From positions 18,813 through 82,812 of the forward strand of contig BJGX01000002.1 in assembly GCA_014191035.1 (NCBI GenBank): a stretch of 64,000 nucleotides of DNA, in the 5' to 3' direction. This DNA is from Candidatus Saccharimonadota bacterium (GTDB lineage Bacteria; Patescibacteriota; Saccharimonadia; CAILAD01; BJGX01). The notes beneath the pieces were generated by a model. The model saw nothing but the letters and a program-made list of their open reading frames with translations. It did not search any database and was not told where the DNA came from. Below are positions 12,604 through 64,000 of this stretch, piece by piece. Each line of letters begins with the position of its first letter. Position 1 is the first letter of the stretch. The translations under genes and the position numbers were made by a program.

Positions 12604-12888
12604 TTAGCTAGCGTTAGCTACAACGCTAACAAGTGATCTGCGCTCTTTATTGCCAGTGAAGGCTTGCTTACGAACGGTTTTAAATTCAACCGATCCTGAT
12701 TTAAGAGCAAATAGAGTGTGGTCTTTGCCAATTCCTACGTGAGAACCGGCTATAAATTTAGTGCCTCTTTGGCGAATTATAATATCTCCGGCCTGAACAG
12801 CTTGTCCACCAGAGCGCTTAACCCCAAGTCTTTTTGATTGTGAATCTCTACCGTTTTTTGTAGAACCACCAGCTTTAGTCTTTGACAT
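12604..12888 (-). CDS. rpmA: 50S ribosomal protein L27.
   Basis: [24 protein letters not shown]... is a canonical L27 N-terminus. Confidence 0.9.
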
Positions 12889-12890
12889 AA

Positions 12891-14033
12891 TTAATTCTCC
12901 TTGTTTGGTTTAAATACAACAATCTGCCGACCTGTAAATTGACCCTCTCTGTAGTAGTTGAGAGTACTTTGTCGAGCAGATTTGAACTCCACAATAGTAT
13001 AGCCCAGATTGGCAATTTCGTCAATAAGATTGAGCCTGATCGTTTGCTCGTTTACCCTCCAGAATGGCACGCAGATACAAACAACATCAGGTAGCCTTTC
13101 CTGTAAGAGCAGGTTTTTAAAAAACTCAACATATATATTTTTTAGGTTCGATATTTGCTCATCTATTAGCTGCTTGGTTGGTTTAGAAAGAAAATTAATT
13201 CCCAAAAAGCCCTCAGTTACCACGCTATAACTTTCTTTTGGATATTTAAGCTTGGTTGCATCGTTTGATTTCAGAATTTCCACTTTTCCTTTGGCATTGA
13301 AATTATCCAAAAACCATTCGATGTTTTTTTTAGCACATTTTGTCATATCATCCGATAAATCACTGCCTATACTGTCATAGCCCATTAGAGAGGCCTCCAT
13401 AAGTAAGCCGCCGGATCCGCAAAATGGATCGCATATTACAGTATTATCATCTGGGTTGGCCAAATTGATCATTATCTGCGAAAGCTTGGGGGGCAACATG
13501 CCAACTTTTCGGTCCCTGCATGGTTTTTCATAATCTCTTTTAGAGTACATATCTATATCCTGAAAAGACAGACCGACTGCTAAAAGCATCTTATCTTTTG
13601 ACTGCACTACGATAAATTCACGTCCATCGGGGAATATCTTGTTGTGCTTTATAGAGGCAGCATTAAGTATTGCGCCATCACTAGGCATTACAAATCTCGG
13701 CTTTAAGCCAGTTGATTTAAGCTCTTTTTTTAGTTTTATCCCAATTTGATTAAAATTAATTTTCGAATTTCCATAATAGCTAATTCCATAATTAAACTTA
13801 GTCTCTATCTCAATATCCTTACAGTGGTTAATTATTTCCTTTTGAAGCTCATTTATACTTGAGACGTTATTGGCAATAATTTCACCTACTTTTATCGTGC
13901 CGCCCAGATTATTGATATCAAATAATTTTTTTGACACAGCAATCTGCTCTGTTATTAGCTCAACATTTTTATCCTTGCTCTCTAGTTCGGCCAAACACAA
14001 ATCTCTTTCTCGTCCTAATATATACAAATACAT
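12891..14033 (-). CDS. SAM-dependent RNA (guanine-N2) methyltransferase-like protein (UPF0020 / RlmL-Trm14 type).
   Basis: DPFCGSGG motif I followed by a conserved acidic loop. N-terminal THUMP-like region plausible. Stop abuts the rpmA start. Confidence 0.6.
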
Positions 14034-17681: not shown

Positions 17682-17768
17682 TGGTGCCAAAGGTGGGAGT
17701 CGAACCCACACGCCCTTGCGAGCACACGATTTTGAGTCGTGCGTGTCTGCCAATTCCACCACTCTGGC
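17682..17768 (-). tRNA. tRNA-Leu, anticodon CAA, with long variable arm and encoded CCA.
   Basis: Reverse complement reads GCCAGAGTGGTGGAATTGGCAGACACGCACGACTCAAAATCGTG...GGGTTCGACTCCCACCTTTGGCACCA. Shows the T-loop GGTTCGACTCC, anticodon loop CTCAAAA and a type-II variable arm. Confidence 0.85.
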
Positions 17769-49876: not shown

Positions 49877-50725
49877 ATGAAGCTTAGGAAACCAGTAAAT
49901 ATTATTCGTGGCAGAGAGGGGACCGATGGTGCCGGCGTAAAGCTGATCCGTTTGTTTTCGCACGATAACACAAATGATTTTGACCCCTTTTTAATGATGG
50001 ATGCATTCGACAGTGTCGATCCAGAAGATTACAATAAGGGCTTTCCATGGCATCCCCACAGGGGTATTGAAACTATAACCTACTTAATTGATGGTGCCAT
50101 AGAACACCAAGACAGCCTTGGAAATTTCGGTGCCATTAATGCTGGTGATGCGCAGTGGATGACGGCAGGGTCAGGCATTATTCATAATGAAATGCCAGTT
50201 GAGTCCAAGAGAATGCGCGGATTTCAGTTGTGGCTGAATCTACCCAAACAACACAAAATGACCAGCCCATCTTATAATGAGATTAAAGAACATAGCATTC
50301 CAGTAGTTAAAGAGGGCAAAAACACTATTAGGATTATTTCAGGCAACTACGGTAATAAAATGGGTGCGTTTGATCCAAAATATGTAAATCCATTATTTTT
50401 GGATATATCGCTTTCAAAAAATTCCAAATTTGAGCTGTCCACACCAAGCTCAGACACATTGTTTGTATATATTTTAGAAGGGGACGTTTCATTTTCCGAT
50501 TCAGAAGATGCTATAGCACATAAAAATGTTGTATTTTTTGGCAAAGGAGACACGCTTAGGGCAAATTCTGTAACTACAAATGCAAGGATTTTGCTTTTTT
50601 CCGCTAAACCAATAAAAGAGCCGGTTGCTTGGGCTGGACCAATAGTTATGAACACAGAAGCTGAACTAGAACTAGCTTTTTCACAGCTAAGGCGCGGAAC
50701 TTTTGTTCAAGATAATCATAAATAA
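49877..50725 (+). CDS. Pirin-family protein (bicupin).
   Basis: HPHRGIETITY motif and the second-cupin GSGIIHNE region. Confidence 0.85.
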   Translation: MKLRKPVNIIRGREGTDGAGVKLIRLFSHDNTNDFDPFLMMDAFDSVDPEDYNKGFPWHPHRGIETITYLIDGAIEHQDSLGNFGAINAGDAQWMTAGSGIIHNEMPVESKRMRGFQLWLNLPKQHKMTSPSYNEIKEHSIPVVKEGKNTIRIISGNYGNKMGAFDPKYVNPLFLDISLSKNSKFELSTPSSDTLFVYILEGDVSFSDSEDAIAHKNVVFFGKGDTLRANSVTTNARILLFSAKPIKEPVAWAGPIVMNTEAELELAFSQLRRGTFVQDNHK

Positions 50726-50757
50726 ACCTTGTTTTGGGTGTACAATTGATTTAGCTC

Positions 50758-51333
50758 ATGAAAAAAGAAATAGAATCTCTAAGAAAGGAGGTGAATAGGC
50801 TAAAAAAGCTAGCCTATCGTGATCACCTTACAGGCCTTCTAAACCGAAGAGGTTTTGAAGATTCTATTAATTTGGCCATAGATCAATACAATAGCAGTGA
50901 TAAAAAATTAACCCCACGCAGGGGTTTTATTGTTAATAGCGTAAGTTTAATCGTTATCGATATTGATAGGTTCAAAAAATTAAATGATAAATACGGCCAT
51001 CCTGAGGGAGATAAAATATTAAAACATCTTTCAAAGCACATTACTAGCCAAGTTCGATCAAATGATCTTGTTGGGCGCTGGGGTGGAGAAGAATTGGTTG
51101 TGGGCCTAATTGGAGCCGACTTAGAATCTGCTTATGAATTGGCTGAAAATGCAAGAATTGAACTAAAAAAATCAGGCTTTGAGCCGGTTTATACTTTTAG
51201 CGCCGGCGTTGCTGGTGTAAATAATCAAATCAATACCTTTCAAAAGCTTTATGAGTGTGCCGACGAGGCTCTTTACAAAGCCAAAACGTCTGGCCGAGAC
51301 AGGGTTGAAAAGTGTAAAATTAAAAGTAATTAA
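50758..51333 (+). CDS. GGDEF-domain diguanylate cyclase (GGEEL variant) with N-terminal coiled-coil.
   Basis: DHLTGLLNRRGF, IDIDRFKKLND and the RWGGEELVV active site. Confidence 0.8.
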   Translation: MKKEIESLRKEVNRLKKLAYRDHLTGLLNRRGFEDSINLAIDQYNSSDKKLTPRRGFIVNSVSLIVIDIDRFKKLNDKYGHPEGDKILKHLSKHITSQVRSNDLVGRWGGEELVVGLIGADLESAYELAENARIELKKSGFEPVYTFSAGVAGVNNQINTFQKLYECADEALYKAKTSGRDRVEKCKIKSN

Positions 51334-51346
51334 TTAGAGGGTAGAA

Positions 51347-51985
51347 ATGAAAGAACAAGTATCAAAGTTGAAGCTAGAGAGATATTCTAAAAATCGCGTT
51401 GAAAACTTAAGTGATGGAGTCTTTGGCTTCGCCATGACATTATTAGTGCTTAATATTGTAATCCCTGAAAGCAGTATAATTTCCAGCAATTCTCAGCTAT
51501 GGCAAGCAATTTCGGGCCAAGGAAGAGCTTTTCTGAGTTTTGCTATTGCGTTTTTTATACTGGCTTCTATGTGGAGCCTGCATGTCAGGCAATTTGAAAA
51601 CCTTCAAGAAATTGATAGGCGATTTGTATTTATAAATTCAATTAGGCTTTTTATGGCAATTCTTATTGCATTTAGTACTGGCATTGCTAGCAGTTACGAA
51701 AAGCTCGAGCTGGCTAGGATGATATTACCAATTAATCTTTTGTTGCTTGCGATTATCGGCACAATACAATGGCATTATGCTGCTTATAGTAAGCCACCTC
51801 TTTTAGAAGGAATTACCAGTGAAGAAAAAAACATGCACAAAATCAGAGCAATCATATTTATTATATTCTCACTATTCACCGTTGTGGCTTCATATTTTGT
51901 CGGAGAAATAGCTTTTGCCATATTTATACTTATGCCAATTATAGTAAGGTTAACTGGCGTTAAAAAGACAAAGTCCTCGGTTTAG
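51347..51985 (+). CDS. DUF1211 / TMEM175-like membrane protein (putative K+ channel family).
   Basis: Signature RVENLSDGVFGFAMTLLVLNI (family consensus RxxxFSDGVFAIAxTLLV). Confidence 0.65.
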   Translation: MKEQVSKLKLERYSKNRVENLSDGVFGFAMTLLVLNIVIPESSIISSNSQLWQAISGQGRAFLSFAIAFFILASMWSLHVRQFENLQEIDRRFVFINSIRLFMAILIAFSTGIASSYEKLELARMILPINLLLLAIIGTIQWHYAAYSKPPLLEGITSEEKNMHKIRAIIFIIFSLFTVVASYFVGEIAFAIFILMPIIVRLTGVKKTKSSV

Positions 51986-52000
51986 AATATAATTATCTAC

Positions 52001-52723
52001 ATGAAACCATACGCAGTATTTGACCTCGACGGCACTCTCATTCGCTGGCAATTATTTCATGTAATTGTCGATAGACTAGGCAAGATCGGCAAAATAGATA
52101 AGCAGATCTATCAAGATATTTTAGATTCACGTATGGCCTGGAAAAGACGCGAGCAGTCTGATGGCTTTGATAGGTATCAAATTAAACTCATTGATGCCTA
52201 TAATTCGGTAGTTACAAATCTTTCTCAAAAAGAGCTAGAGGAATTAGCCAACAGGGCATTCGAAGAACATAAAGACCAAAGCTATGTGTTTACTCGAAAT
52301 TTAATGAAGGATTTGAAAGCAAAAGGCTATATGCTGTTTGCCATTTCTGGATCGTTCACTGAAGTTGTGCAACTTATTGCCAAGCACTATGGCTTTGATG
52401 ACTCGGCCGGCACTATGCATGCCAAAAAAAGTGGTAAGTTCACTGGCGAAATAGATGTAGTGCAGTATGAGCGAAAAGTGGATATGCTAAACGATCTTAA
52501 AAAGAAATACGATCTTACTGATGAAGATAGCTATGCGGTCGGGGATTCAATGGGCGACTATGCTATACTTAAGCACGTTCAAAATCCCATAGTATTCAAC
52601 CCCGCGCGAGAGCTGTTTGAAAAAGCAAAAGAACATGGCTGGCGAATTGTAGTAGAACGTAAAAATGTAATATATGAACTTAGCAAAAAAGACGATAACT
52701 ACATCCTAAACTCTGGGGTATAA
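52001..52723 (+). CDS. HAD-superfamily hydrolase (phosphoserine-phosphatase-like).
   Basis: Motif I FDLDGTL and motif IV GDSMGD. Confidence 0.7.
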   Translation: MKPYAVFDLDGTLIRWQLFHVIVDRLGKIGKIDKQIYQDILDSRMAWKRREQSDGFDRYQIKLIDAYNSVVTNLSQKELEELANRAFEEHKDQSYVFTRNLMKDLKAKGYMLFAISGSFTEVVQLIAKHYGFDDSAGTMHAKKSGKFTGEIDVVQYERKVDMLNDLKKKYDLTDEDSYAVGDSMGDYAILKHVQNPIVFNPARELFEKAKEHGWRIVVERKNVIYELSKKDDNYILNSGV

Positions 52724-52730
52724 TATACAA

Positions 52731-54269
52731 ATGAATAAAAAACTAGTCCTTTCCAAATCCGAATATATGATGTATCTAAAGCACCCAGCCTACTTATGGA
52801 TTAAAAAGCACGATAAAAACAAGATTCCGCCAGTAAGTGCAGATTTACAGGCCATGTTTGATGCCGGAAATGAATTTGAACAATATGCCGAATCGCTTTT
52901 TCCCGATGGTGTAAGGGTGGGCTTTAATGACTATAACGAATATTTAAATATGCCTGCACGCACCCAAGAAGAGCTCGATAAAGGCACCAAAACTATTTTC
53001 CAGGGCCGATTCGAACATGAACAAACGACCTTTATTTGTGATGTTGTTCGCGTCATTGGTAAGAATGAAGTTGATTTGTACGAAATTAAGTCAAGCACCG
53101 GCGTGAAGCTGGAGCATATCTTGGATCTTGCTTACCAAACTACAGTTTTAGAAAATTGCGGCTATAGTGTTAATGATATTTATGTGGTGCATGTAGACAA
53201 TAGCTATGTACGAGCAGGCGAGATAGATCCAAAGCAAATTACTACCACCACCAACGTAACCGAAGATGTCAAAAAGGAGCTTGGCAGGACAAAACGAAAT
53301 ATCTTAGATGCAATTGCAGTTATGGAGCAGTCTGATATGCCAGATCCATCACCGGCCCGTTGTAAGCTAAATAGTCTTAAGGAATGGCTTGAAGTTTATA
53401 AAAACATTAAACCAATAGAAGAGGGTAGTATATATGAACTTTGCAGACTTAACGCTGATACCGTGCGTTTATTAGAGGAAGAAGGGGTTAGTAAGCTCAA
53501 AGATATTCCATTAAGCCTAATTGATAATGAAAAACAACGTTGGCAGCTAGAGGCACTAGAAAACGGTGAGCCAATTTACAATAAAGATAAAATCAAAAAG
53601 TTTTTAAGTAAGCTACATTACCCATTATACTTTTTTGACTATGAAACACTAAGCAGTTGCGTTCCATATTTTGATGGAACCAAGCCATATCAACAGATAC
53701 CGTTTCAGTATTCATTGCATGTTATAGAATCGCCTGGTGGCGAATTGAAGCATATGGGGTACTTGCAGGCCGACAACACAAACCCAGCCGAAGCTCTTAG
53801 TAAAACCCTTAAAGATCAAATCGGCACAACTGGAAGCATAATTGCCTGGAATATGAGCTTTGAAAAAATGTGCAATACCGCACTAGGCACTATGGCTCCA
53901 GAATACAAAGATTTTTATGAAGATCTTAATACTCGTATGGCTGATTTAATGATTCCTTTTAGTAAAGGTTATTATATAGATTCCAGTTTTCTCGGTAGTG
54001 CTAGTATCAAAAATGTCTTACCAGTATTGGTGCCAGAGCTAAGCTACAAAGATCTTGGTATTCAAGAGGGTGGAAGTGCCCAGCGAAGCTGGATGGACGC
54101 GGTTTTATACGAAAAGCGATCTGATAAAGATCAGGTACTTAAAGATCTCGAAGAATACTGCAAACTTGATACTTTAGCAATGGTAGAAATATTTAACTTT
54201 CTAACCAAGCTTGTGGCAGGCGAAGGCGGAAGTGTAGCTAAAGCCGAGCAACTAGGTTTGGGTATATAA
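52731..54269 (+). CDS. DUF2779-like protein with an N-terminal PD-(D/E)xK-type nuclease signature.
   Basis: VDLYEIKSS (hhhD-x-hE-x-K pattern) in the N-terminal third. Large C-terminal region of unknown function. Confidence 0.45.
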   Translation: MNKKLVLSKSEYMMYLKHPAYLWIKKHDKNKIPPVSADLQAMFDAGNEFEQYAESLFPDGVRVGFNDYNEYLNMPARTQEELDKGTKTIFQGRFEHEQTTFICDVVRVIGKNEVDLYEIKSSTGVKLEHILDLAYQTTVLENCGYSVNDIYVVHVDNSYVRAGEIDPKQITTTTNVTEDVKKELGRTKRNILDAIAVMEQSDMPDPSPARCKLNSLKEWLEVYKNIKPIEEGSIYELCRLNADTVRLLEEEGVSKLKDIPLSLIDNEKQRWQLEALENGEPIYNKDKIKKFLSKLHYPLYFFDYETLSSCVPYFDGTKPYQQIPFQYSLHVIESPGGELKHMGYLQADNTNPAEALSKTLKDQIGTTGSIIAWNMSFEKMCNTALGTMAPEYKDFYEDLNTRMADLMIPFSKGYYIDSSFLGSASIKNVLPVLVPELSYKDLGIQEGGSAQRSWMDAVLYEKRSDKDQVLKDLEEYCKLDTLAMVEIFNFLTKLVAGEGGSVAKAEQLGLGI

Positions 54270-54272
54270 AAA

Positions 54273-54301
54273 ACCACTTCATTACGAAGTGGTCAGTTTT
54301 T
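54273..54301. terminator. Bidirectional terminator: AAAAAA-CCACTTC-atta-cGAAGTGG-TCAGTTTTT.
   Basis: 7-bp stem flanked by an A-run and a T-run. Lies between convergent genes. Confidence 0.7.
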
Positions 54302-54496
54302 ACCATACGTTTCTTCTATGTGCTTTCTGCCTTTTCGGATAAGGTAGTCAGAAAGTATACTATAAAAGAAATAAAGAGCACCGATTATTGGTATGAATGA
54401 AAGAACTGGCAATACGTACAACAAAATTGCTGAGAAAAACAAGCAAATTACAAAAGCAATTGCAAAGCCTGTGGAGTCAGGTTGCTTTTTAGCCAT
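54293..54496 (-). CDS. Small 2-TM membrane protein (tentative; start at MAKKQ).
   Basis: Short ORF with two hydrophobic helices. Confidence 0.3.
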   Translation of the reverse strand: MAKKQPDSTGFAIAFVICLFFSAILLYVLPVLSFIPIIGALYFFYSILSDYLIRKGRKHIEETYGKN

Positions 54497-54497
54497 T

Positions 54498-54764
54498 TCA
54501 CTTACCCCCTGGGTGGTCCTCAATTTTGCAATTTTTAACAATGAATGTCCCAACGGCATATAATTCAAAACATTGATATTCTCCAGCTAAAAAGTCTTTG
54601 TAGTGCATCTCGTAGTCAAAAAAGTGGCTTACATCAATTGCTGTAACACTTTTCTTTGTTTCTAAAATTACTATCAAGCTTTGATCGGGAAGTACCCTTG
54701 GTGCGTGTCTTGGAGGATTCGGAATGTACCTACCAAGATTTTGTATCAAGCTTGGCTTATACAT
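54498..54764 (-). CDS. Hypothetical small protein.
   Basis: ORF only. Start is uncertain. Confidence 0.3.
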   Translation of the reverse strand: MYKPSLIQNLGRYIPNPPRHAPRVLPDQSLIVILETKKSVTAIDVSHFFDYEMHYKDFLAGEYQCFELYAVGTFIVKNCKIEDHPGGK

Positions 54765-54824
54765 CCGACCTCCTTTTAAGGTGCGCCGTGGCGATATTGT
54801 CCCACTTTTTAAGTTGTTTTTCAA

Positions 54825-56447
54825 TTATTCTTGTTCTTGCAGTTTTAGATCGGAAGCTTTCTGAACCTTTGTATCGGGCAAGTTTCGAGACATAAATAGT
54901 GAAATTATCGATAGAAATATCAATAGCACCATTGCTTGCTTTAGCCCCGCTAACTGCGATTCGGTGTAAAGCTCAACAATATTTTGAGTCTGCTGAGGAG
55001 AATAGCCACGATCCTGAACGGCCTTTTCAACTTCAGAGGTAGATAGTACGGGTATTCCTTTATTGGCTTGTTCTGATACGGCCTGCTTTATGTTGTCTGG
55101 AATCTGCGAATCAGCCGAAACCTTAGCGCTAAAACCACTCGAGAGCGTCATGATTAGCACCGAACCAATAATTGCTGTACCAAGCGAAGACCCTATATTC
55201 TGGGCAGTCCCTTGCATACCACCAACTTCACTTGAATGCCGCTTATCTACAGCGTTCATATTAATATTACCTAGCTGTGAGGCTAAGAGTCCAAGGCCTG
55301 CGCCGAGCAGGAACATGCCTATAAATAGCGGGGCTCCGGTTAGCTCTGGATCGATAGTTGTAGTAATAATTATCACTCCAGCAATTAGCATTAGCTGGCC
55401 AATTTTTACAATCTTTTTAGGGCTCAAATACTGGCTCGTTTTGGAGCCAAACATCGAAAAGAGTATTAATGAGACTGAAAGTGGAAGTATGCGAAGGCCA
55501 GTTTCTAGCGCATTTAGGCCAATGACCATTTGCAGATAAATTGGCAGAACAAAGAACACCGCACCAACTATTAGGTATTGAGACATAAGCACACCAAGGC
55601 CACTGCGAAGTTGAGGGATTTTTAAAACCCTCGCATCTAATAGTGGAGTTTTGCCTGCTTGTATTAAGTTCTTTTGATGATTCAAAAACCACACAATAAG
55701 AACTAAGCCTGCAAAAATCATATAGGCAACTATCGATATTCCGAATGGCGCTAATTCATAGCCAAAAATGGTTGGAATAGTCATGGGCTTAACCCAACCC
55801 CAAACCTTACTTTGTAGTATTCCAAATATCAAAAGTGCCATTCCGCCAGCTGACAAAAGGACGCTTGGAATATCAAGTTTAGTTTTAGTAGTTTTTGGAG
55901 ATTCTGGCACCAATTTATGTAGTAGTAGTATCCCAACAACAATTACCGTTTCAAATGCAAATACAAAGCGCCAGCTCAAGTAGGTAGTAACGAAGCCTCC
56001 AATCAAAGGCCCTGCAGCAGCGGCAGCACCAGCCACGGCACCTGTAATTGCATAGGCAGTTAGCCTATCTCGGCCTTCGTAGCGAGAAGCAATTAAGGCT
56101 GCAATTGCAGGAATCACCAAAATAGCACCCAAGCCTTCTACTAAAGACCAGCCAAACATCAATGTTTGAATGTTCGGGCTTAGTGCGGTAATTAGTGATC
56201 CAATTCCATAAACACCAAGGCCAATCAAAAAGGCTTTTTTACGGCCCCAAATATCTCCTAGTTTTCCGCCCGTTAACATAAATGCAGCCATAGTTAGGGT
56301 AAAGAATGTAATTGCTGCTTGCATGGCAGCCACACTTGTCCCTAAATCTTTCACTACGGTAGATATCGACACATTCATTACGGTGCTATCTAAAACCATC
56401 ACGAACTGCGCGAGCGCAAGTAAAATTATTGCAGACCACTTCTTCAT
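54825..56447 (-). CDS. MFS transporter, 14-TM drug:H+ antiporter (DHA2/EmrB-like).
   Basis: 14 TM helices. MFS motif A-like GGKLGDIWGRKK. N-terminal LAQFVMVLDSTVMNVS, typical of DHA2. Confidence 0.85.
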   Translation of the reverse strand: MKKWSAIILLALAQFVMVLDSTVMNVSISTVVKDLGTSVAAMQAAITFFTLTMAAFMLTGGKLGDIWGRKKAFLIGLGVYGIGSLITALSPNIQTLMFGWSLVEGLGAILVIPAIAALIASRYEGRDRLTAYAITGAVAGAAAAAGPLIGGFVTTYLSWRFVFAFETVIVVGILLLHKLVPESPKTTKTKLDIPSVLLSAGGMALLIFGILQSKVWGWVKPMTIPTIFGYELAPFGISIVAYMIFAGLVLIVWFLNHQKNLIQAGKTPLLDARVLKIPQLRSGLGVLMSQYLIVGAVFFVLPIYLQMVIGLNALETGLRILPLSVSLILFSMFGSKTSQYLSPKKIVKIGQLMLIAGVIIITTTIDPELTGAPLFIGMFLLGAGLGLLASQLGNINMNAVDKRHSSEVGGMQGTAQNIGSSLGTAIIGSVLIMTLSSGFSAKVSADSQIPDNIKQAVSEQANKGIPVLSTSEVEKAVQDRGYSPQQTQNIVELYTESQLAGLKQAMVLLIFLSIISLFMSRNLPDTKVQKASDLKLQEQE

Positions 56448-56473
56448 AATTTAATTATAAATCAATGCCTAAA

Positions 56474-57718
56474 TTATTGGTACTGAACTTTATATATAAG
56501 GTTTTGCTTATCATCACTTATATACATGTTGCCTGCAGGGTCAAAGCCAACACCAACCGGACGTCCCCAGGCGCCACTGCCATCTAGCCAGCCAGTAATA
56601 AAATTATATTCTTTCATTGGGTTAGATTTGGTATCTACCCAAATCACTTTATAGCCAGTCGGAACGGTTCGGTTCCAGGATCCGTGCATCGCACCAAAAA
56701 ATCCGTTTTCAAATACATTTGGCCAGGTCTGTTTGGCAGCCTCGTTTTCAAATGTAATCCCAAGAGGGGCGTAGTGAGCCTGAAGGCCAAGTACAGGGCC
56801 AGCAGTTTGGGCTTTACAATATTCAGCCTTATCTTTGTATTCAGGGTTATTTATTTTATCGCCATAACAGTAAGGCCAGCCATAATTTTTACCTTGCTCA
56901 ATAATATTTACTTCCTCTGGTGGGATATCATCGCCAATTTGGTCTCGCCCCATGTCTAAGCCCCAAAGTTTGCCTTCGTTAAATGTAAAGCCCACGGTGT
57001 TACGAAGCCCGCTAGCATAAATTTCTCCGCCAGTTCCATCGAGATTATAGCGCATTATTGTTGCTCTGCGATTGTCATTTTCAATACAGACATTACATGA
57101 TGATCCGATAGATACATACATTTTATTATCGGGCCCAATTACGACTGTACGGGTAGTGTGGCCGCCGCCCGTGAGCTTACTTCCGCCAGGCAAATTATCA
57201 ACCAAAACTTCTTTTTTAGAATATGTTCCATTGCTTTTAATGCCGCGATACACACTGACTCTTGTCTGTTCGGCTAGGTATAAATCGCCATTATAATAAT
57301 AAACCGAGTGTGGTGTGTTAAGTTTGCTCTCTATTACAACCGGCGTGCCGGCTGTGCCATTATTGTCTGGAATAGCGTATATACTATCGCCGGTGTTACT
57401 ACCAACAAACATCGTGCCATCGGGTGCAAATGTAAAGAATCTCGCGCCCTTAATGTTTGTGGCATAAATACTTATTTTAAAGCCCGCTGGGGCATATAAT
57501 GTTTTACCACCGACACTTTGGGCAACCAAATTAAATGGCGCTTCAAGTTGGTTTTGATTGTTCTCATTAACTTGCTGTTGGCTCAATTTGCCACTCAAAA
57601 ATGCCGTATTATTAATTACCCAATAAATCACATATCCAATTGCAGATAGCAAAATTATTGCTATAACTAACAGCGCAACATTTCTTTTATTGTGATTTTT
57701 GCTTTTGGATTTAGCCAT
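56474..57718 (-). CDS. Soluble quinoprotein glucose/sorbosone dehydrogenase-like beta-propeller protein with N-terminal TM anchor.
   Basis: Family-typical N-terminal blades (LYAPAGFKISIYA...FTFAPDGTMFVG). Start at the ATG at 57718 is uncertain; the ORF track uses 57754. Confidence 0.65.
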   Translation of the reverse strand: MAKSKSKNHNKRNVALLVIAIILLSAIGYVIYWVINNTAFLSGKLSQQQVNENNQNQLEAPFNLVAQSVGGKTLYAPAGFKISIYATNIKGARFFTFAPDGTMFVGSNTGDSIYAIPDNNGTAGTPVVIESKLNTPHSVYYYNGDLYLAEQTRVSVYRGIKSNGTYSKKEVLVDNLPGGSKLTGGGHTTRTVVIGPDNKMYVSIGSSCNVCIENDNRRATIMRYNLDGTGGEIYASGLRNTVGFTFNEGKLWGLDMGRDQIGDDIPPEEVNIIEQGKNYGWPYCYGDKINNPEYKDKAEYCKAQTAGPVLGLQAHYAPLGITFENEAAKQTWPNVFENGFFGAMHGSWNRTVPTGYKVIWVDTKSNPMKEYNFITGWLDGSGAWGRPVGVGFDPAGNMYISDDKQNLIYKVQYQ

Positions 57719-57775
57719 AAGTTTATTATAACATCTCAAATAAAGCCCAAGCATGAAAAATCATGTAAAGAAAAA

Positions 57776-57801
57776 GCCACACTACGTCGTTGTAGTGTGG
57801 C
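57776..57801 (-). terminator. Perfect 10-bp hairpin GCCACACTAC-gtcgtt-GTAGTGTGGC, with a T-run on the minus strand.
   Basis: Preceded on the + strand by GAAAAA. Terminates the minus-strand gene ending at 57822. Confidence 0.6.
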
Positions 57802-57821
57802 CAGGGCCGAAGCAAATCGGC

Positions 57822-58121
57822 TCAGTTCTGGTAAGAATGAGACTGAGAGAGGACGTCGCAGGAGTCCTGCAGTCTCTCAATCTGATACTTCATGTCTCTG
57901 TACAGGTAGACAACGCCACTGATGCAGCCAATCAGCATGGACACCAATGGGGCAGTATCCCAGAAGCTGACTTTTGTGTTGTCGGAGACCAGTTCGAGTG
58001 CGATTAGCACCATGAAGACGAACGAGATCATCCCCAGGGCCAGTACAGTCGAGAAGGCGTAGACAGCGAAAGACCGAGAAATGACGGACTTCCTGTCCCA
58101 GCCGAAGTACTTGTAGAGCAT
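57822..58121 (-). CDS. GC-rich small membrane protein (2-3 TM).
   Basis: GGAGG SD 6 nt upstream of the ATG at 58119-58121. About 52% GC versus the AT-rich surroundings. Confidence 0.5.
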   Translation of the reverse strand: MLYKYFGWDRKSVISRSFAVYAFSTVLALGMISFVFMVLIALELVSDNTKVSFWDTAPLVSMLIGCISGVVYLYRDMKYQIERLQDSCDVLSQSHSYQN

Positions 58122-58225
58122 GTGGCACCTCCAGTACCAGCGCAACCAACCTGGTTACGGATTGAAATTATACTACATATGGTTACTTTTGTCAATGCTA
58201 AATATGTTTTTGTTATAATATAATC

Positions 58226-58852
58226 ATGAAAATTATCGTCTTTGGTGCTAGTGGCAAAACCGGTCTAGAAGTATGCAAGCTGGCCTCAAAAAAGGGCTAC
58301 GATGTAATTGGGTTTGATATTCATAAAAACGACCAGCTAGTGGGGCTTAATAATTTTAAATTCATCAAGGGCAGTGTATTAAATGCCGATGAGGTCGATC
58401 AGGCAATGAGCGGGGTAGATGCAGTCGTCTCCGAGCTTGGGGTTAAAATCGGCAGCAAATTACCGCTACTTTCTGAGGGTAACAAAAACATAATCTCGGC
58501 AATGCACAAGCATAAAATAAAGCGGCTCATAACCCAATCAGCCTTTGGTGCGCTCGAATCTTATAAAAAGCTACCATTTTATTACAAAATAATTCACAAA
58601 CTCTTGCTTGGGCCAATGTCCAAAGACAAAAACATCATGGAGCGCGAGGTGCAAAAATCTGATATCAACTTCACAATTATCCGCCCAGTTAGACTCACCA
58701 ATGGTCCAGCCAAAGGCAAGTTCAGAACAGGGGATACCAATCTCAAACTCGGCCTTAACCCTAGAGTCTCCAGAAAAGACGTTGCCATATTTATTATGGA
58801 TGAGCTAGAAAATAACAATTTTATTAAAAAAGCCGTTACAATTACTTATTAA
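58226..58852 (+). CDS. NAD(P)H-binding NmrA/atypical-SDR-like protein.
   Basis: Rossmann motif IIVFGASGKTG. Short 208-aa form lacking the SDR YxxxK in its usual position. Confidence 0.7.
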   Translation: MKIIVFGASGKTGLEVCKLASKKGYDVIGFDIHKNDQLVGLNNFKFIKGSVLNADEVDQAMSGVDAVVSELGVKIGSKLPLLSEGNKNIISAMHKHKIKRLITQSAFGALESYKKLPFYYKIIHKLLLGPMSKDKNIMEREVQKSDINFTIIRPVRLTNGPAKGKFRTGDTNLKLGLNPRVSRKDVAIFIMDELENNNFIKKAVTITY

Positions 58853-58853
58853 T

Positions 58854-59183
58854 ATGGAGGATTACCAAAAAGGCAGCATAGTATTCGACCGTGCGGTAGA
58901 TATTGTCCGCAAGTGGGATGAAGTTAATAAAAGTCATGTCAGCCCTATAGGCTTAATGTTTGTTATGCGTATTGGCTATGCAATGGCACAAAACATTATG
59001 GATCAGCTTCGCGAAAACCACATTGTGCGTATGGAATTTATTAAGCATGACGATGGCGAGGAAGGAATCAAATACCATATTATTACCAAGGCTGAGTTAG
59101 CCAAAAAGTTCCCGGACGAGGAGTGGTACGAGCCAAAACACGAAAGTGGGTTTGATTATGATTTGGCAAAGGAGTCTTTATGA
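58854..59183 (+). CDS. FtsK-gamma-like winged-helix DNA-binding protein.
   Basis: Colinear with the E. coli FtsK gamma domain as recalled: FDRAVDIV...SHVS...L.F.MRIGYAMAQNI.DQL.ENHIV versus LFDQAVQFV...[30 protein letters not shown]. Translationally coupled to neighbours on both sides. Confidence 0.55.
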   Translation: MEDYQKGSIVFDRAVDIVRKWDEVNKSHVSPIGLMFVMRIGYAMAQNIMDQLRENHIVRMEFIKHDDGEEGIKYHIITKAELAKKFPDEEWYEPKHESGFDYDLAKESL

Positions 59184-59821
59184 AATCAGTAAATATAAAT
59201 TTAGGCAAAATAAAAAATGCTCAAAAAGATCTAAATATCGGAATTGGCGACCTATCTTACTGTTTAGTCATTGGCGGCTGGGCATCAGGCAAATCTTTTT
59301 GGCTGGACAACATTTATAATCAACTTAAAGAACAAATGAGCCCAGAAGAATTGGGCTTTGTGTTACTAAATGTGTCGGGTGGCGCTGAAGAAATAAACAA
59401 TGAGTATATTATCGAAGAACACATTAGCAACGAATGCTTAGGCCCGCTTGCCGAGTACGCCGAGCTTGCTAGGCAGCGTTCGAATGGCGACGAAGCTAAA
59501 GACAGGCACATCATCGTTCATATCGAGGGAAATGATCTGGCTTTAACAAATGAACGAAGCAAATATTTTAATTCGATTACACTACTTGCAAGCAATGCAA
59601 AGAATGCAAATATGTCATTAATAATCGTCGACAACCGAGCAAACGAACAGCAAACACCACCCGAAATTACCAAATTATGCAGGCTAATTGCATTATTTAG
59701 TAGCAACAATTATTTACCAAATGCCAAGTATATAGGGGCAGCTAAATCAAAGTTGGATAAATTCGAAAAGCAAATTATTTTGAATAATGAGACTTATATT
59801 TTAGAAAGGCTCAAAACCTAG
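59180..59821 (+). CDS. Miniature P-loop ATPase, FtsK/SpoIIIE RecA-fold-like.
   Basis: Walker A LVIGGWASGKS. Walker B-like IIVHIEG. Distal LIIVDNRANEQ resembles the FtsK HLVLATQRP segment. Confidence 0.5.
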   Translation: MKSVNINLGKIKNAQKDLNIGIGDLSYCLVIGGWASGKSFWLDNIYNQLKEQMSPEELGFVLLNVSGGAEEINNEYIIEEHISNECLGPLAEYAELARQRSNGDEAKDRHIIVHIEGNDLALTNERSKYFNSITLLASNAKNANMSLIIVDNRANEQQTPPEITKLCRLIALFSSNNYLPNAKYIGAAKSKLDKFEKQIILNNETYILERLKT

Positions 59822-59871
59822 CGCCAACAGATATAAAATGCTATGATTATTTTTAAATTAATGAGGTTATA

Positions 59872-62800
59872 ATGTCAGCCACAAACAGCCCTGAAGAAAA
59901 AAACATGGAGAGAAGAATAAAAACTACAAAAGTAGTCTACCCACAACTTTATTCTTATGTCTTGCCAGACTTAACAGCAAATGAAGGTTCTCAAAAAATA
60001 GGCTACACCGAACGTAAAGATGTAGATGAGCGAATTCGCGAACAGACGCAAACGGCAGCAATGAAGTTGCGTTACGACAAACTCTGGAGTGCGCCTTCTT
60101 TTTTTACGAATTCAAATACAGATTTTACAGATAAGATTTTCCATCAGTTTCTGGTTAGAAATGGTGTAGAAAAAAGAGATGATCTGGGAACGGAATGGTT
60201 TTATTTCAACGGCACACCGGAAAAATCAAAACAACTTTTTGATTCATTCAGAAACGAAGGTTATGCCGCTCTCCAAAATAATAATGGTAAAAAACCTTAC
60301 ACCTTAAGAGAAGAACAAGAAGCAGCGGTAAGTCAGGCTATAGAGTATTTTAACAACTATACAAATGGAGAATTCCTGTGGAATGCCAAGCCTAGATTTG
60401 GCAAGACGCTTGCGACTTATGACCTTGCCAAAAGACTAGGGGCTCAAAAGGTGCTTATAGTTACCAATAGGCCAGCAATTGCCAACTCGTGGTTTGATGA
60501 CTTTGAAAATTACATCGAGGATTTTTATTTTATATCCGAAACATCATCACTAGCAGAGAGGGGCACCTTAACCAGAGCGCAGTATGTTGATTCGGACGTT
60601 GAAAAACCACAAATAACTTTCTTGTCACTTCAAGACCTAAAAGGCTCCAGGTTTTTTGGAGGAAAGCATGATAAGTTGAAATGGATTGCTGACCTCGAAT
60701 GGGACTTGCTTGTAATTGATGAGGCGCATGAAGGGGTCGATACTGGTCGCACAGATGCAGCATTCGATGTCGTGAAGCGCAGCCATACTTTGCATCTTTC
60801 AGGTACACCATTCAAGGCACTAGCAAATAATAAATTTCCAAAGGAAGCCATATTTAACTGGACATATTTGGATGAGCAAAAAATAAAGAAATTAGAAATA
60901 TCAGAAAATGAAACTGGTGACCATACTGACCTCCCAGATTTAAAACTTTTCACTTACAGAATATCGCAAATGATAGCTGAACAAGTTAATGAAGGAATAG
61001 AACTAGAAAACGAGTCACGAGATTACGCCTTTGATTTAAATGAATTTTTTGCGACTGAGAACCAAAAATTTGTTCGAGAACAAGACGTTAGACAATTCCT
61101 GAAAAACCTCAGTGCGAATAAAAAATATCCATTTTCTACACCCGAACTTCGAGACGAACTACGCCATACGTTTTGGTACGTAGGCAATCGTGTAGATTCA
61201 GTTAAGGCCCTTGAAAAGTTACTAGCTGATGATGATGTTTTCAAAGATTATAAGGTTGTAGTGGCAGCCGGTGACGGCAAATCATTTGATGAGGAGGAAA
61301 CTGACTTCGGAGCCAATGAAAAGTCATTTGACAAAGTCAAAAAAGCCATTAAAAATCACCCAAAAACAATTACATTATCATGTGGCCAACTAACCACTGG
61401 TGTGACCATAAAAGAATGGAGCGCAGTATTAATGCTTACAGACATTAAATCGACTCCAGTCTATATGCAGGCGGCATTTAGGGCTCAAAATCCTTACAAG
61501 TACTATGAAGACGGCATGCTCAAAGTTAAAGAGTCAGCCTATCTTTTTGATTTCGCACCAATACGTGTATTGGAGATGTATGATGAATTTGCAAATGGAT
61601 TAAACCCTGATGCTACCAATGGCCTGATCACAGAGGAGGACCGCAAAGGTAACATCCGAGAACTGTTAAATTATTTCCCAGTTATATCTGAAGACACTGA
61701 AGGACAAATGGTCGAGCTAGATGCCGAAAAAGTATTGACCTTCCCGAATGCTCTCGCCGCTACCGAAATTGTCCAAGCACGCTTCATGACCAATTTGCTA
61801 TTCAATGACAACATTAAAGGGGTCTTTCATTTTCCTAAAGAAGTCGAAGATATACTCGATAAAATGCCTGTTGAAAAGAACAAGCGTGTTGAAGTGTCCA
61901 AGCAATCACTTGACCTAGAAGATGCACGAAAGGTTGAGCAAGATAAACAAGCTAAAATTAGCGAGAATACTGGCGTCATATTGGGCGAAAAGATTTATCG
62001 AGCCAATATTGATAGAGTTGTAGACAATGTTTTAGATCAAGCAACGCCTGAAGAAACCATAGACATGCTGCCTGAAAAGGTAGAAGCCCTGGTAGAGGCG
62101 CCTATAGCCAAACTAAAAGAACAATATAAGCTAACTGCCACCGAAACAGATGAATTACGCAAAGAAACAGCCGAAAAGATCAAGATTGTTGTATCAGAAT
62201 TTGAAAATAGTGATGATAAAGATCCAGATACTTTAAAACAAAGCCTTGCTAATGTTATTGAACACGATTTGGTGCAGGCAAAAGTGGAGCAACAAGAAAC
62301 CAAAGCCGTAGAAACAGTACAAAAATCTAAAGAAGAAGAGGTGCGCGAACACCTGCGTGCCTTTACTCGCACAATTCCAATGTTCGTAATGGCAAATTCT
62401 TCACGTGATACGATTACTATAGACAACTTTGACGAGCAAATAAGCGATGAAGATTTTATCGACTTAACAAATATTACCAAGGAAGAATTCCATAAGCTCC
62501 GTGACGGTTTTGATTATTCTGATGATAACGGTGAGCGCCAGCACTTTGATGGTGTGTTTCACAAGTACAAGTTCAACGCATCTATAGCAGAATTTGTGTC
62601 TGAAAAACAAAAACGAGCTAACTATTTCGAAACAGATGATGATATTTTTGAATTAATTCCTAATCAAAAGAATAATCAAATATTTACACCCCGCAAAGTT
62701 GTGAAGATGATGATTGATGGGCTCGAGAAAGAACAGCCGGAGCTATTTAAGCGAACCGACAGTACATTTATTGACTTATATATGAAATCAGGCATGTATG

Positions 62801-64000
62801 TAACAGAAATAGTTAAAAAGCTGTTTGCTGGCACTCGGCATAATTACAGCACCGACAAAGAATGCCTCAAGCATATACTAGAGAACCAAGTGTATGGCTT
62901 GGCGCCTACTGGTGTGCTGCATGGCATCACTAAAAGTTATATACTAGGATTTGATGTAGATCATAATATAAGTAGTAGAAACTTTGTGCAACACGACTTA
63001 CTGCCAGAGGCCAAAGCCGGCACTGCAGCACAAAAAATCGCAGATTTATTTAACAATGGAGATATTAATATGAAATTTGATGCAGTTGTAGGTAATCCGC
63101 CTTACCAGGTGGCGCTATCACAAAATAAAATGTCACGTAGCATTTATCCGGACTTTGTGCGAGCCGCGAAAAAAATTTCGGAGACTTTTTCGTTTGTGAT
63201 GCCTGCTCGCTGGATGAGTGGCGAGAATGGGCCTTATCGAGAAACACAAGGATTTGTAGACGAAATGCTAGATGGCAGTCATTTAAAATCATTTACATTA
63301 TTCCCAGATTCTAGTGAGCTATTCAAGGGCGTTGACATAAAAGGAGGTGTTTGTTATTTCGTATGGGACAAAAATTATAGCAAGGATTTAGTGGATTATA
63401 CACTGAGCGAACGAGGTAAAGACGTAACCGCAATTGTTCCATTCAAAATTAGTGACAATATCATCGTGCGTTTTCCGCAACTTACAAATATAGTTCAAAA
63501 AATTTCAAGGAATGCACCTAGTGATTCCATGAAGACACTGGTATCTTCATGGAATCCGTTCGGATTCATTTCAGATTTGTTCGTAAAAAATAATGAGGGC
63601 GTTCGTAGGATTAGCGAAAAGAAAATGGATACTGATGACTATAAGGTTATTGGCCTTTTAAAAGGAAGGCGTGTATACCGCTATATACCGAATGATGAAC
63701 TTAAGAAGAATAGAATTGGCGCTAAGTCATGGAAAGTATTTGTTCCAAGAGCAAATGGTAGTGGAGTATTTGGGGAGGTTTTTAGTACACCGATGCTCGG
63801 TGTACCGATGCTCGTATGCACTGATACTTTTTTACAAGTAGGTGAGTTCGACAATGAATATGAGGCAAATAGCGTATTGACGTATGTAAAAACAAAGTTC
63901 TTCAGGGCAATGGTAGGGGTGAAAAAAACAGCAGTATTTAACTATAAAGATGCTTTTACTTTCGTACCTCAACAGAATTGGACGAATAAATCCGACATAG
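59872..64000 (+). CDS. Single-polypeptide restriction-modification-like enzyme (Type ISP-like): PD-(D/E)xK nuclease, SF2 DEAH ATPase, gamma-class N6-adenine MTase (NPPY). The 3' end lies beyond the window.
   Basis: Frame is open from the ATG at 59872 to the window end. N-terminal VLPD-x14-ERK. Helicase motifs I (KPRFGKT), II (VIDEAHEG), III (LSGTPF), V (GQLTTGV) and VI (QAAFRAQN). MTase motif I-like DLYMKSGMYV and motif IV VVGNPPYQ. Confidence 0.75.
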   Translation, partial: MSATNSPEEKNMERRIKTTKVVYPQLYSYVLPDLTANEGSQKIGYTERKDVDERIREQTQTAAMKLRYDKLWSAPSFFTNSNTDFTDKIFHQFLVRNGVEKRDDLGTEWFYFNGTPEKSKQLFDSFRNEGYAALQNNNGKKPYTLREEQEAAVSQAIEYFNNYTNGEFLWNAKPRFGKTLATYDLAKRLGAQKVLIVTNRPAIANSWFDDFENYIEDFYFISETSSLAERGTLTRAQYVDSDVEKPQITFLSLQDLKGSRFFGGKHDKLKWIADLEWDLLVIDEAHEGVDTGRTDAAFDVVKRSHTLHLSGTPFKALANNKFPKEAIFNWTYLDEQKIKKLEISENETGDHTDLPDLKLFTYRISQMIAEQVNEGIELENESRDYAFDLNEFFATENQKFVREQDVRQFLKNLSANKKYPFSTPELRDELRHTFWYVGNRVDSVKALEKLLADDDVFKDYKVVVAAGDGKSFDEEETDFGANEKSFDKVKKAIKNHPKTITLSCGQLTTGVTIKEWSAVLMLTDIKSTPVYMQAAFRAQNPYKYYEDGMLKVKESAYLFDFAPIRVLEMYDEFANGLNPDATNGLITEEDRKGNIRELLNYFPVISEDTEGQMVELDAEKVLTFPNALAATEIVQARFMTNLLFNDNIKGVFHFPKEVEDILDKMPVEKNKRVEVSKQSLDLEDARKVEQDKQAKISENTGVILGEKIYRANIDRVVDNVLDQATPEETIDMLPEKVEALVEAPIAKLKEQYKLTATETDELRKETAEKIKIVVSEFENSDDKDPDTLKQSLANVIEHDLVQAKVEQQETKAVETVQKSKEEEVREHLRAFTRTIPMFVMANSSRDTITIDNFDEQISDEDFIDLTNITKEEFHKLRDGFDYSDDNGERQHFDGVFHKYKFNASIAEFVSEKQKRANYFETDDDIFELIPNQKNNQIFTPRKVVKMMIDGLEKEQPELFKRTDSTFIDLYMKSGMYVTEIVKKLFAGTRHNYSTDKECLKHILENQVYGLAPTGVLHGITKSYILGFDVDHNISSRNFVQHDLLPEAKAGTAAQKIADLFNNGDINMKFDAVVGNPPYQVALSQNKMSRSIYPDFVRAAKKISETFSFVMPARWMSGENGPYRETQGFVDEMLDGSHLKSFTLFPDSSELFKGVDIKGGVCYFVWDKNYSKDLVDYTLSERGKDVTAIVPFKISDNIIVRFPQLTNIVQKISRNAPSDSMKTLVSSWNPFGFISDLFVKNNEGVRRISEKKMDTDDYKVIGLLKGRRVYRYIPNDELKKNRIGAKSWKVFVPRANGSGVFGEVFSTPMLGVPMLVCTDTFLQVGEFDNEYEANSVLTYVKTKFFRAMVGVKKTAVFNYKDAFTFVPQQNWTNKSDI

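Follow-up and report, generated by a model that had tools for sequence, protein, structure and literature searches.

The product of the open reading frame at the 3′ end of the analysed stretch of 64,000 nucleotides (the window) is probably the large subunit of a restriction–modification system that depends on ATP, and it belongs to an uncharacterized, horizontally spread protein family. The domain order, the conservation of the catalytic motifs, the hypervariability of a recognition region uncoupled from the core, and a constant partner gene in the relatives were all computed here and form the basis of this assignment. By analogy, the protein is best read as an enzyme that would work like the Type ISP restriction enzymes without being a member of that group. 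Restriction of phage or other foreign DNA is a likely function, in keeping with the phage-defense locus suggested in an earlier note on the same DNA.

The frame (59872–64000, forward strand) runs from an ATG to the end of the window over 1376 codons without interruption, which agrees with the single frame of more than 1370 codons described earlier. An in-frame stop codon (59854–59856) and a Shine–Dalgarno sequence precede the ATG. A deposited full-length protein of 1411 amino acids (P0001) is identical to the frame product, so that just 35 residues lie past the window and a pseudogene is excluded. The frame does run off the window, as the earlier note had stated, though by these 35 residues only, and the interruption that the note had considered beyond position 64000 does not exist. 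Judging from P0001, the gene with its stop codon should extend to approximately position 64107, and its product finishes at the conserved C-terminus of the family. The following features were assigned:

59863–59866, +, Shine–Dalgarno sequence GAGG, 5 nt upstream of the ATG at 59872
59872–64000, +, open frame, codons 1–1376 of a 1411-codon gene (identity with P0001)
59929–60276, +, GIY-YIG-clan nuclease-like domain (T5orf172/MUG113), aa 20–135 (Pfam, conserved residues; tentatively, predicted fold)
59947–59961, +, LYSYV with conserved residues Y27/Y29
59995–60009, +, conserved residues K42-I-G44-x-T46
60031–60033, +, conserved residue R54
60142–60144, +, conserved residue H91
60193–60198, +, conserved residues E108-W109
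60298–61806, +, SF2 helicase-like ATP motor, aa 143–645 (Pfam ResIII, invariant motifs)
60400–60408, +, motif I GKT (translation)
60718–60729, +, motif II DEAH (translation)
60799–60810, +, motif III SGTP (translation)
61468–61491, +, motif VI QAAFRAQN, with one Arg only (translation)
61807–62631, +, linker, aa 646–920 (conservation map)
62632–63351, +, gamma-class N6-adenine methylase domain (Eco57I family), aa 921–1160 (Pfam, PADLOC, invariants)
62683–62691, +, motif X FTP, aa 938–940 (translation)
62773–62799, +, motif I DLYMKSGMY, with DLYMKSG at aa 968–974 (translation)
62893–62907, +, YGLAP, without an acidic residue after YG (translation)
63094–63105, +, motif IV NPPY, aa 1075–1078 (translation)
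63112–63891, +, hypervariable region holding the target-recognition domain, aa 1081–1340 (conservation)
63892–64000, +, start of the conserved C-terminal tail, aa 1341–1411, ...DIDWSKSIxEIDQQLYKKYGLSxxEIDFIE... (homologue conservation)

The upstream neighborhood of the gene is of housekeeping character. The two upstream ORFs at 58854–59183 and 59180–59821 were dropped as system components because they are not conserved beside homologues. Close DNA relatives of the locus were not found in the phage and plasmid collections using megablast, and all relatives of the protein detected in the metagenome scan show 79% identity or less.

The N-terminal domain belongs to the GIY-YIG clan (T5orf172/MUG113) according to Pfam matches and conserved residues and, tentatively, the predicted fold. 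The Pfam matches appeared when aa 1–144 were scanned alone (MUG113, 25.0 bits, gathering score 22.3; T5orf172, 21.4 bits, gathering score 20) and were absent from the scan of the full-length protein. Among the N-terminal domains of 17 homologues, 14 matched MUG113 and 10 matched T5orf172. Across 17–35 sequences, no or hardly any variation is seen at Y27, Y29, K42-I43-G44, T46, R54, H91, and E108-W109; the Tyr, Arg, and Glu presumably have the catalytic or metal-related roles known from I-TevI and UvrC. The earlier note had recognized a PD-(D/E)xK signature (VLPD...ERK) in this part of the protein. The letters are present (PD, 59965–59970; ERK, 60010–60018), but they are not conserved: D33 and K49 vary freely in the homologues (LPE, LPT, or LPG; ERK, EHK, EQA, ELQ, or TR-D). 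Together with zero matches to the Pfam PD-(D/E)xK or Mrr families even at E values up to 10, this variability rules out a nuclease of the PD-(D/E)xK/Mrr type.

The motor domain is matched by Pfam ResIII (aa 143–314, E = 2.5e-13, above the gathering score); a Helicase_C match was not found in the Pfam scan of the protein. The full SF2 motif set read from the translation earlier (GKT, DEAH, SGTP, QAAFRAQN) is real, since these motifs and NPPY are invariant in 16–35 homologues, down to 32% identity. Within the core, the lowest conservation is seen at aa 721–800, in the linker (mean pairwise identity 0.47–0.49).

The gamma-class N6-adenine methylase with NPPY, also proposed before, is confirmed by the invariance of this motif and by a match to Pfam Eco57I (aa 1005–1151, E = 4.3e-13, 50.2 bits, gathering score 25.3), not to MmeI_Mtase. 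The PADLOC models REase_MTase_IIG (7.9e-35) and MTase_II (3.8e-32) were matched as well. In addition to the Pfam match, the motif order X-I-...-IV (NPPY) followed by a C-terminal variable region places the domain in the Eco57I family. Domain searches recovered the order nuclease, helicase, methylase, the failure of which the earlier note had named as evidence against its reading. The methylase domain and the hypervariable region overlap at aa 1081–1160, where the fold is partly kept in distant homologues. An AF2 model of the methylase and recognition part (aa 900–1411) reached a pLDDT of 49.

Mean pairwise identity is 0.16–0.43 at aa 1081–1340, compared with 0.6–0.87 in the core. Identity to P0001 in this region falls into three classes (61–83%, 27–36%, and 16–21%), which are independent of core identity: the homologue P0019 shares 79% of the core and 28% of the recognition region with P0001, the homologue P0109 60% and 65%, respectively. 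Judged by this pattern of module shuffling, aa 1081–1340 is the target-recognition domain. It is encoded at nt 63112–63891 and thus within the window, not beyond position 64000 as assumed earlier.

A methylase-like protein of 230–350 aa is encoded adjacent to, near, or fused with the large gene in all 92 testable loci of relatives (80 of 80, plus 12 of 12 testable further metagenome loci). In 12 loci, the two form one protein, with the partner at the N-terminal end. Whether located upstream or downstream, the partner matches the PADLOC model PDLC03390 (E = 1e-72 to 1e-77). It keeps the methylase motifs X, I, and YGxE and has neither NPPY nor a recognition domain. A second, complete methylase for the other strand was considered and rejected, as a (D/N/S)PP(Y/F/W/H) motif was found in none of 68 partners, a recognition domain is absent, and co-variation with that of the large protein is lacking. 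Partner identity tracks the nuclease, the helicase, and the N-terminal half of the methylase (Spearman 0.52–0.68), but not the recognition domain (0.06–0.14). From this coupling to the core alone, we infer an accessory subunit that is specificity-independent. Except for this partner, no gene is conserved around the large gene in the relatives. In every relative with at least 57% identity and room on the downstream side, the partner gene lies downstream; in the closest relative with context (L097, 79% identity), the large gene ends at 10212 and the partner covers 10224–11213, leaving a gap of 11 nt. The partner gene of this genome is therefore expected just past position 64107 and predicted from the relatives to start approximately 0–3 kb after it, in line with the downstream partners that had been suspected beyond position 64000.

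A possible mechanism can be modelled on the Type ISP, Type I, and Type III enzymes. The methylase–recognition module would read a short, probably asymmetric site, at which the methylase would deposit m6A on host DNA. An unmethylated site would switch on ATP hydrolysis, upon which the motor would move along or loop the DNA and the GIY-YIG domain would cut away from the site. The partner might be an S-adenosylmethionine binder or might adjust how modification and restriction are balanced. Like Type I and Type III systems, the family couples a ResIII-type SF2 motor to an m6A methylase and carries swappable recognition modules on a conserved core. Unrelated defense genes are inserted between core genes in Type I loci (PMC9881135), and RhuM or DUF1016 genes likewise separate the large gene and the partner gene in some relatives. 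Type I and Type III systems, however, are multi-subunit enzymes (HsdR/M/S; Mod/Res) with PD-(D/E)xK nucleases, whereas all parts except the small partner are fused here.

The methylase fold is frequently split just before NPPY in natural variants of the relatives, and in the common split variants the half with NPPY and the recognition domain is a separate protein of 345 aa, whereas it forms part of the single chain in the protein of the window. A bolder and rather improbable reading is that of an exchangeable split methylase, in which two alternative halves that bind S-adenosylmethionine are available to this one. Joined to the small partner, whose X, I, and YGxE motifs are canonical, it would form a pure methylase; joined to the degenerate half in the nuclease–motor chain (YGLAP, lacking an acidic residue), it would become a site reader that licenses ATP-driven cutting. 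If true, this would be a new way to balance modification against restriction. Its logic would resemble that of M2S versus R2M2S in Type I systems, but the means would be the exchange of two halves of a single Rossmann fold. On 12-kb Enterococcus faecalis plasmids, a stand-alone gene for NPPY and the recognition domain adjoins an IS110 transposase; it was set aside as a free C-terminal half, since this neighbor makes a remnant probable.

In domain content, the closest systems are best taken to be the three-gene DnmA(YeeA)-YeeB-YeeC systems, which likewise combine a gamma-class m6A methylase that brings its own recognition domain with an SF2 helicase and a protein of the T5orf172/GIY-YIG kind, and which occur in defense islands and mobile elements; the likeness to YeeB and YeeC is one of domain content only. 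They differ in consisting of three proteins instead of one chain, in their MmeI-like methylase (Pfam Eco57I here), and in lacking the additional half-methylase partner. Such helicase–nuclease systems were predicted by Morgan et al. in 2009 (PMC2731913). DnmA/YeeA with the SF2 protein YeeB and the T5orf172 protein YeeC is reported to protect Vibrio crassostreae from some phages (PMC9973331).

Type ISP enzymes translocate in an ATP-driven manner, cleave upon collision, and methylate one strand. The earlier note had assigned the protein to their LlaGI/LlaBIII single-chain architecture, and the N- to C-terminal order of nuclease, SF2 ATP motor, gamma N6-adenine methylase, and target-recognition domain in one chain is indeed shared. 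The size class is similar (1411 aa vs. approximately 1570 aa for LlaGI and LlaBIII), action away from an asymmetric site is probably ATP-driven in both, and plasmids of lactic acid bacteria are frequent hosts of both. Membership in this family, that is, a solitary Mrr nuclease–helicase–methylase–recognition polypeptide, is nevertheless very improbable. Type ISP enzymes carry an N-terminal Mrr-family PD-(D/E)xK nuclease (PMC2790908) instead of a GIY-YIG-clan domain, and passages in PMC3553950 and PMC12418389 describe them as single-polypeptide systems, whereas the relatives studied here always have the partner and frequently a split methylase. All PDB chains, a set that by its description includes the solved Type ISP enzymes, were searched with phmmer and with profiles; no restriction enzyme was matched by the profile of the whole protein (E up to 1) or by the helicase or methylase–recognition part (E up to 10). 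The matches obtained (feruloyl esterase, porin, P14, GGPP synthetase) were chance matches. Scarcely any weight is given to an ordinary Type IIG enzyme of the Eco57I/MmeI kind, which would cut at a fixed distance without ATP. Type IIG enzymes also fuse a methylase and recognition module to a nuclease, the Pfam Eco57I and PADLOC matches given above fit them, and JGI names the relatives "type II restriction enzyme". The REase_MTase_IIG match is limited to the C-terminal third (aa 938–1376), however, and a complete, invariant SF2 motor of approximately 500 residues, for which Type IIG enzymes have no counterpart, lies between the methylase and a nuclease of another kind than the PD-ExK domain found in Eco57I and MmeI. 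Where Eco57I is accompanied by a methylase, this is a complete enzyme, while the partner found here is a half without NPPY.

A modification-only or decayed system, whose methylase marks DNA (epigenetic or orphan) while nuclease and motor no longer restrict, is unlikely. The B. subtilis DnmA-YeeB-YeeC analogue, for which neither restriction nor phage protection was found (PMC9973331), and the housekeeping genes upstream of the frame fit such a role. The motifs of nuclease, motor, and methylase are all invariant in homologues from many phyla, however, the frame is intact to the conserved C-terminus, and recognition domains that are exchanged while the core stays conserved are what would be expected if invaders exert diversifying pressure. 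Slightly less credit is given to BREX- or DISARM-like interference without cutting, or to a different role in mobile elements, for example, methylation that protects an incoming plasmid, with T5orf172 as a DNA binder. T5orf172 is annotated as DNA-binding in BFVD descriptions, the C-terminal half has a weak PglX match (E = 0.006), and many members are found on plasmids (23 of 92 predicted to be conjugative). This reading is opposed by the invariance of Tyr, Arg, His, and Glu, residues of the GIY-YIG catalytic type, and by the lack of any other conserved neighbor gene; no PADLOC protein model of BREX, DISARM, Hma, or MADS matched the large protein. Furthermore, most members are chromosomal and spread across many phyla, and near-full-length matches occur in only three of 50,697 phage records.

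The preferred assignment, an ATP-dependent restriction enzyme with a GIY-YIG-type nuclease, would imply, if right, at least two origins of single-chain translocating restriction enzymes, whose nucleases (Mrr and GIY-YIG) are unrelated, and it would define a large family without a tested member. Relatives (E up to 1e-30) form 715 clusters at 50% identity, and at least 588 of the scanned GTDB species-representative genomes contain them. They are currently annotated as "Eco57I methylase domain protein", "DEAD/DEAH helicase", or Type IIG. The family is widespread and seems to have no tested member, as none was found in the openly accessible literature. Carriers include Listeria, Enterococcus, Streptococcus, Bacillus, plasmids of lactic acid bacteria, and Saccharibacteria. 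Such enzymes would stand in the way of transformation and of phage infection in dairy starters, enterococcal resistance plasmids, and Saccharibacteria, and their swappable recognition domains could give new specificities. Compact two-gene modules occur on small plasmids of lactic acid bacteria, for example, the 10-kb pRS5, and enterococcal resistance plasmids carry enzymes of the family, with one module approximately 1 kb from optrA. Defense functions also surround relatives: in some, an AAA_13 gene adjoins, and GmrSD, a Schlafen/AlbA_2 ATPase, and a Panacea toxin–antitoxin system are encoded near locus L001.

The frame that opens at position 59872 of the window (+ strand) is a single one, as the earlier note had claimed, and runs to position 64000 as 1376 codons without a stop. 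ATG 59872 is the first start codon past an in-frame stop (59854–59856) and is preceded by GAGG at 59863–59866. A search of a collection of 5.8 billion proteins returned one of 1411 residues (P0001) that is 100% identical to the window's product and is recorded as a hypothetical protein of the "Candidatus Saccharibacteria bacterium" metagenome-assembled genome LBMAG34. Because the identical protein has 1411 residues, no more than 35 are missing from the window, and the end of the gene is expected near 64107; the frame does leave the window, as had been noted, but by this short stretch only. The product ends in a tail common to all homologues (...DIDWSKSIxEIDQQLYKKYGLSxxEIDFIE...), and the gene is not a pseudogene.

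Motifs of the protein encoded from 59872 on the + strand (residue numbers, motor coordinates confirmed by translation)
177–179, GKT, motor
283–286, DEAH, motor
310–313, SGTP, motor
533–540, QAAFRAQN, motor
938–940, FTP, methylase
968–974, DLYMKSG, methylase
1008–1012, YGLAP, methylase
1075–1078, NPPY, methylase, followed by the variable C-terminal region

The SF2 motor proposed earlier was recovered by Pfam as ResIII (aa 143–314), and its four motifs are invariant among 16 to 35 homologues with identities down to 32%; motif VI contains a single arginine. The methylase likewise held up, with Pfam Eco57I at aa 1005–1151 over the curated cut-off and an NPPY that is invariant in the homologues. 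The order of the motifs, with the variable region last, is that of the gamma class. PADLOC matches were confined to the C-terminal third (the REBASE-derived models "REase_MTase_IIG" and "MTase_II").

The N-terminal domain had been taken for a PD-(D/E)xK nuclease, which the searches did not support. When aa 1–144 were scanned alone against Pfam, two families of the GIY-YIG clan scored above their cut-offs, MUG113 (25.0 bits; 22.3 needed) and T5orf172 (21.4 bits; 20 needed), and no PD-(D/E)xK family appeared even at E-values up to 10. Among 17 diverse homologue N-domains, T5orf172 was found in 14 and MUG113 in 10. D33 and K49 of the supposed "PD...ExK" vary freely among homologues; Y27, Y29, K42, G44, T46, R54, H91, E108, and W109 are invariant. 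For aa 1–150, the AlphaFold2 model (pLDDT 80) displayed a beta-beta-alpha-beta-alpha core; in a Foldseek comparison with viral proteins, its top matches were T5 Orf172, GIY-YIG, and Bro-N proteins, with modest E-values of about 1e-4. The domain thus appears to be nuclease-like and of the GIY-YIG clan, with cutting activity predicted in the present branch.

The recognition domain, assumed earlier to lie beyond position 64000, is located within the window. In an identity profile of 24 homologues (60–77% overall identity), mean pairwise identity is 0.6–0.87 across most of aa 41–1080, dips to 0.47–0.49 in a linker (aa 721–800), falls to 0.16–0.43 over aa 1081–1320, and rises again in the tail. Compared with the window's protein, the variable stretch falls into three identity classes (61–83%, 27–36%, and 16–21%), which are independent of core identity: the homologue P0019 has 79% identity in the core and 28% in the variable stretch, and P0109 has 60% and 65%, respectively. 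Since these classes do not track core identity, nt 63112–63891 are best read as a shuffled, putative target-recognition module.

A small methylase-like protein (230–350 aa), here termed the partner, is encoded on the same strand as the large gene in its relatives. All 80 loci with room on the relevant side contain it, as do another 12 of 12 from metagenomes. Relatives with 57% identity or more have it downstream, either adjacent (13 loci) or after a gap of up to 2.8 kb (13 further loci) that can hold, for example, RhuM, DUF1016/YhcG, or Schlafen/AlbA_2 ATPase genes. In the clade of 41–47% identity, it is located immediately upstream (41 loci), and in 12 loci of a clade of Streptococcus and Enterococcus moraviensis it is fused to the N-terminus. 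Upstream and downstream partners match one PADLOC model (PDLC03390 "MTase_II", E 1e-72 to 1e-77) and are named "N-6 DNA methylase" in RefSeq. No partner gene was found within the window itself. In L097, which at 79% identity is the closest of the relatives with context, 11 nt separate the large gene from the start of the partner; going by position, the partner is expected here just past the window end.

The partner retains motifs X (EVFTP) and I (LEITCGE) as well as "YGxE"; in the large protein's methylase, no acidic residue follows "YG". The motif X–I regions of the two proteins align weakly (hhalign E 1.8e-4, probability 48%). An NPPY-type motif was present in none of 68 partners, and a recognition domain was not found in them. 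In a purely descriptive comparison over non-independent pairs, the partner co-varied with the nuclease, the motor, and the N-terminal half of the methylase (Spearman 0.52–0.68), but not with the recognition region (0.06–0.14).

Type ISP enzymes such as LlaGI and LlaBIII are described as combining an Mrr nuclease, a helicase, an adenine methylase, and a recognition domain in one polypeptide and as cutting after translocation and collision (PMC3553950, PMC2790908). The architecture of the large protein works like theirs. However, the membership in this group that the earlier note had assigned fails on three features: the nuclease is of another superfamily, PDB-wide sequence searches returned no similarity (the PDB copy is described as including the solved Type ISP enzymes), and the partner is constantly present in the relatives. 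The nearest system by domain content is the three-gene cluster DnmA(YeeA)-YeeB-YeeC (MmeI-like methylase, SF2 helicase, and T5orf172/GIY-YIG protein), which was proposed by Morgan et al. as a helicase-dependent MmeI relative (PMC2731913) and reportedly protects Vibrio crassostreae against some phages, but is inactive in B. subtilis (PMC9973331). In contrast to that cluster, the large protein fuses the three activities, and its methylase is of the Eco57I family. In the open-access literature, no paper characterising a member of the family was found.

The data establish the anatomy, catalytic motifs that are all conserved, a recognition module that is shuffled among homologues, and an obligatory partner. 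The protein is best read as part of a two-component restriction-modification enzyme that carries a GIY-YIG domain and resembles Type ISP without belonging to it. The earlier observation was largely real and its interpretation half right. The methylase-recognition module would read a short site and methylate host DNA, an unmethylated site would switch on the DEAH motor, and the GIY-YIG domain would then cut at a distance, with the partner as a presumed accessory subunit independent of specificity.

Frequently, the large protein is cut just before "KFDVVVGNPPY" into chains of about 1100 and 345 aa (9986–13234 and 13231–14268 in L078, a 4-nt overlap); the methylase fold can therefore be built from two chains. 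Numerous cluster representatives of 1095–1150 aa in the HMMER scan suggest that this split is common. In the three-gene variant, whose genes overlap by 1–4 nt, the 1082-aa chain comprises the nuclease, the motor, and the N-terminal half of the methylase, and the 345-aa chain, which begins MIMKFDVVVGNPPYQ, holds NPPY and the recognition domain. Partner fusions occur in a Lachnospiraceae genome, in Enterococcus moraviensis, and in Streptococcus mitis, S. infantis and related species; in most of these loci the gene is additionally split within the helicase (e.g., 627 + 1084 aa, 4-nt overlap).

Variant arrangements in loci of relatives
L078, 9069–14268 (also L063, L072, L074, L079, L084): partner, 1082-aa chain, 345-aa chain
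L066, L068–L071, L073, L075–L077, L080–L082: partner joined N-terminally to the nuclease-motor chain

This is a large family that spans phyla. Among the GTDB species-representative genomes scanned, at least 588 contain a relative, and these include Saccharibacteria, Bacteroidota, Chlorobi, Bacillota (including Streptococcus mitis, S. infantis, Dolosigranulum, and Enterococcus), Actinomycetota, Planctomycetota, and one archaeal metagenome-assembled genome. When 1.84 billion cluster representatives were scanned in full with HMMER, 715 proteins matched at E-values up to 1e-30. Matches occur in 92 plasmid records (36 of them nearly full length), mostly from Enterococcus and lactic acid bacteria, whereas only three phage records contain near-full-length matches. 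The window adds one more member to a widespread family without a tested member; experimental work on this family, and on the half-methylase partner that goes with it, would be worthwhile.

The local upstream neighbours of the large gene are housekeeping genes. Two open reading frames overlapping by 4 nt lie directly upstream; they are not conserved beside the homologues, and no terminator-like site was found on the + strand in 58000–60100.

Open reading frames directly upstream of the large gene
58854–59183, 109 aa, weak FtsK-gamma-like winged helix (E 1e-4, below cut-off)
59180–59821, 213 aa, Walker A GGWASGKS, weak PtuA N-terminal match (E 0.001)

Although the identical protein carries the label of a Saccharibacteria metagenome-assembled genome, the genes in the region 49877–58852 include those for a GGDEF cyclase, a Pirin, an MFS transporter, a TMEM175-like channel, and a glucose/sorbosone dehydrogenase-like protein. 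A 512-aa DUF2779 protein (52731–54269, E 6.5e-38), the N-terminal part of which is weakly Cas4-like (PADLOC E 2.4e-4), is possibly a nuclease of the PD-(D/E)xK type with no link to the large gene. The window's only tRNA gene is tRNA-Leu(caa) at 17682–17768 (− strand). Because neither a tRNA gene nor an integrase was found near the restriction gene within the window, the visible side bears no sign of an island boundary.

Between or beside the core genes of relatives, RhuM, DUF1016/YhcG PDDEXK nucleases, Schlafen/AlbA_2 ATPases, GmrSD, and AAA_13 (PADLOC PDC-S06) were observed; in Type I loci, too, RhuM and DUF1016 have been reported to interrupt the set of core genes.

Defence-type genes in loci of relatives
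L001, 12227–17997
L011, 14346–15359
L012, 4249–5271
L029, 5280–7535
L041, 14256–15698

The two-gene module occurs on many enterococcal plasmids. On E. faecium plasmid pAT02-a (NZ_CP097062.1, L086), the N-6 DNA methylase (4247–4993) and the large gene (4986–9323) follow optrA, a gene for oxazolidinone/phenicol resistance, at a distance of approximately 1 kb downstream. A 12-kb E. faecalis plasmid (NZ_CP028840.1, L088) carries a lone reading frame with NPPY and recognition domain (1738–2817, matching aa 1067–1411) next to an IS110 transposase; this frame is probably the remnant of a disrupted system.
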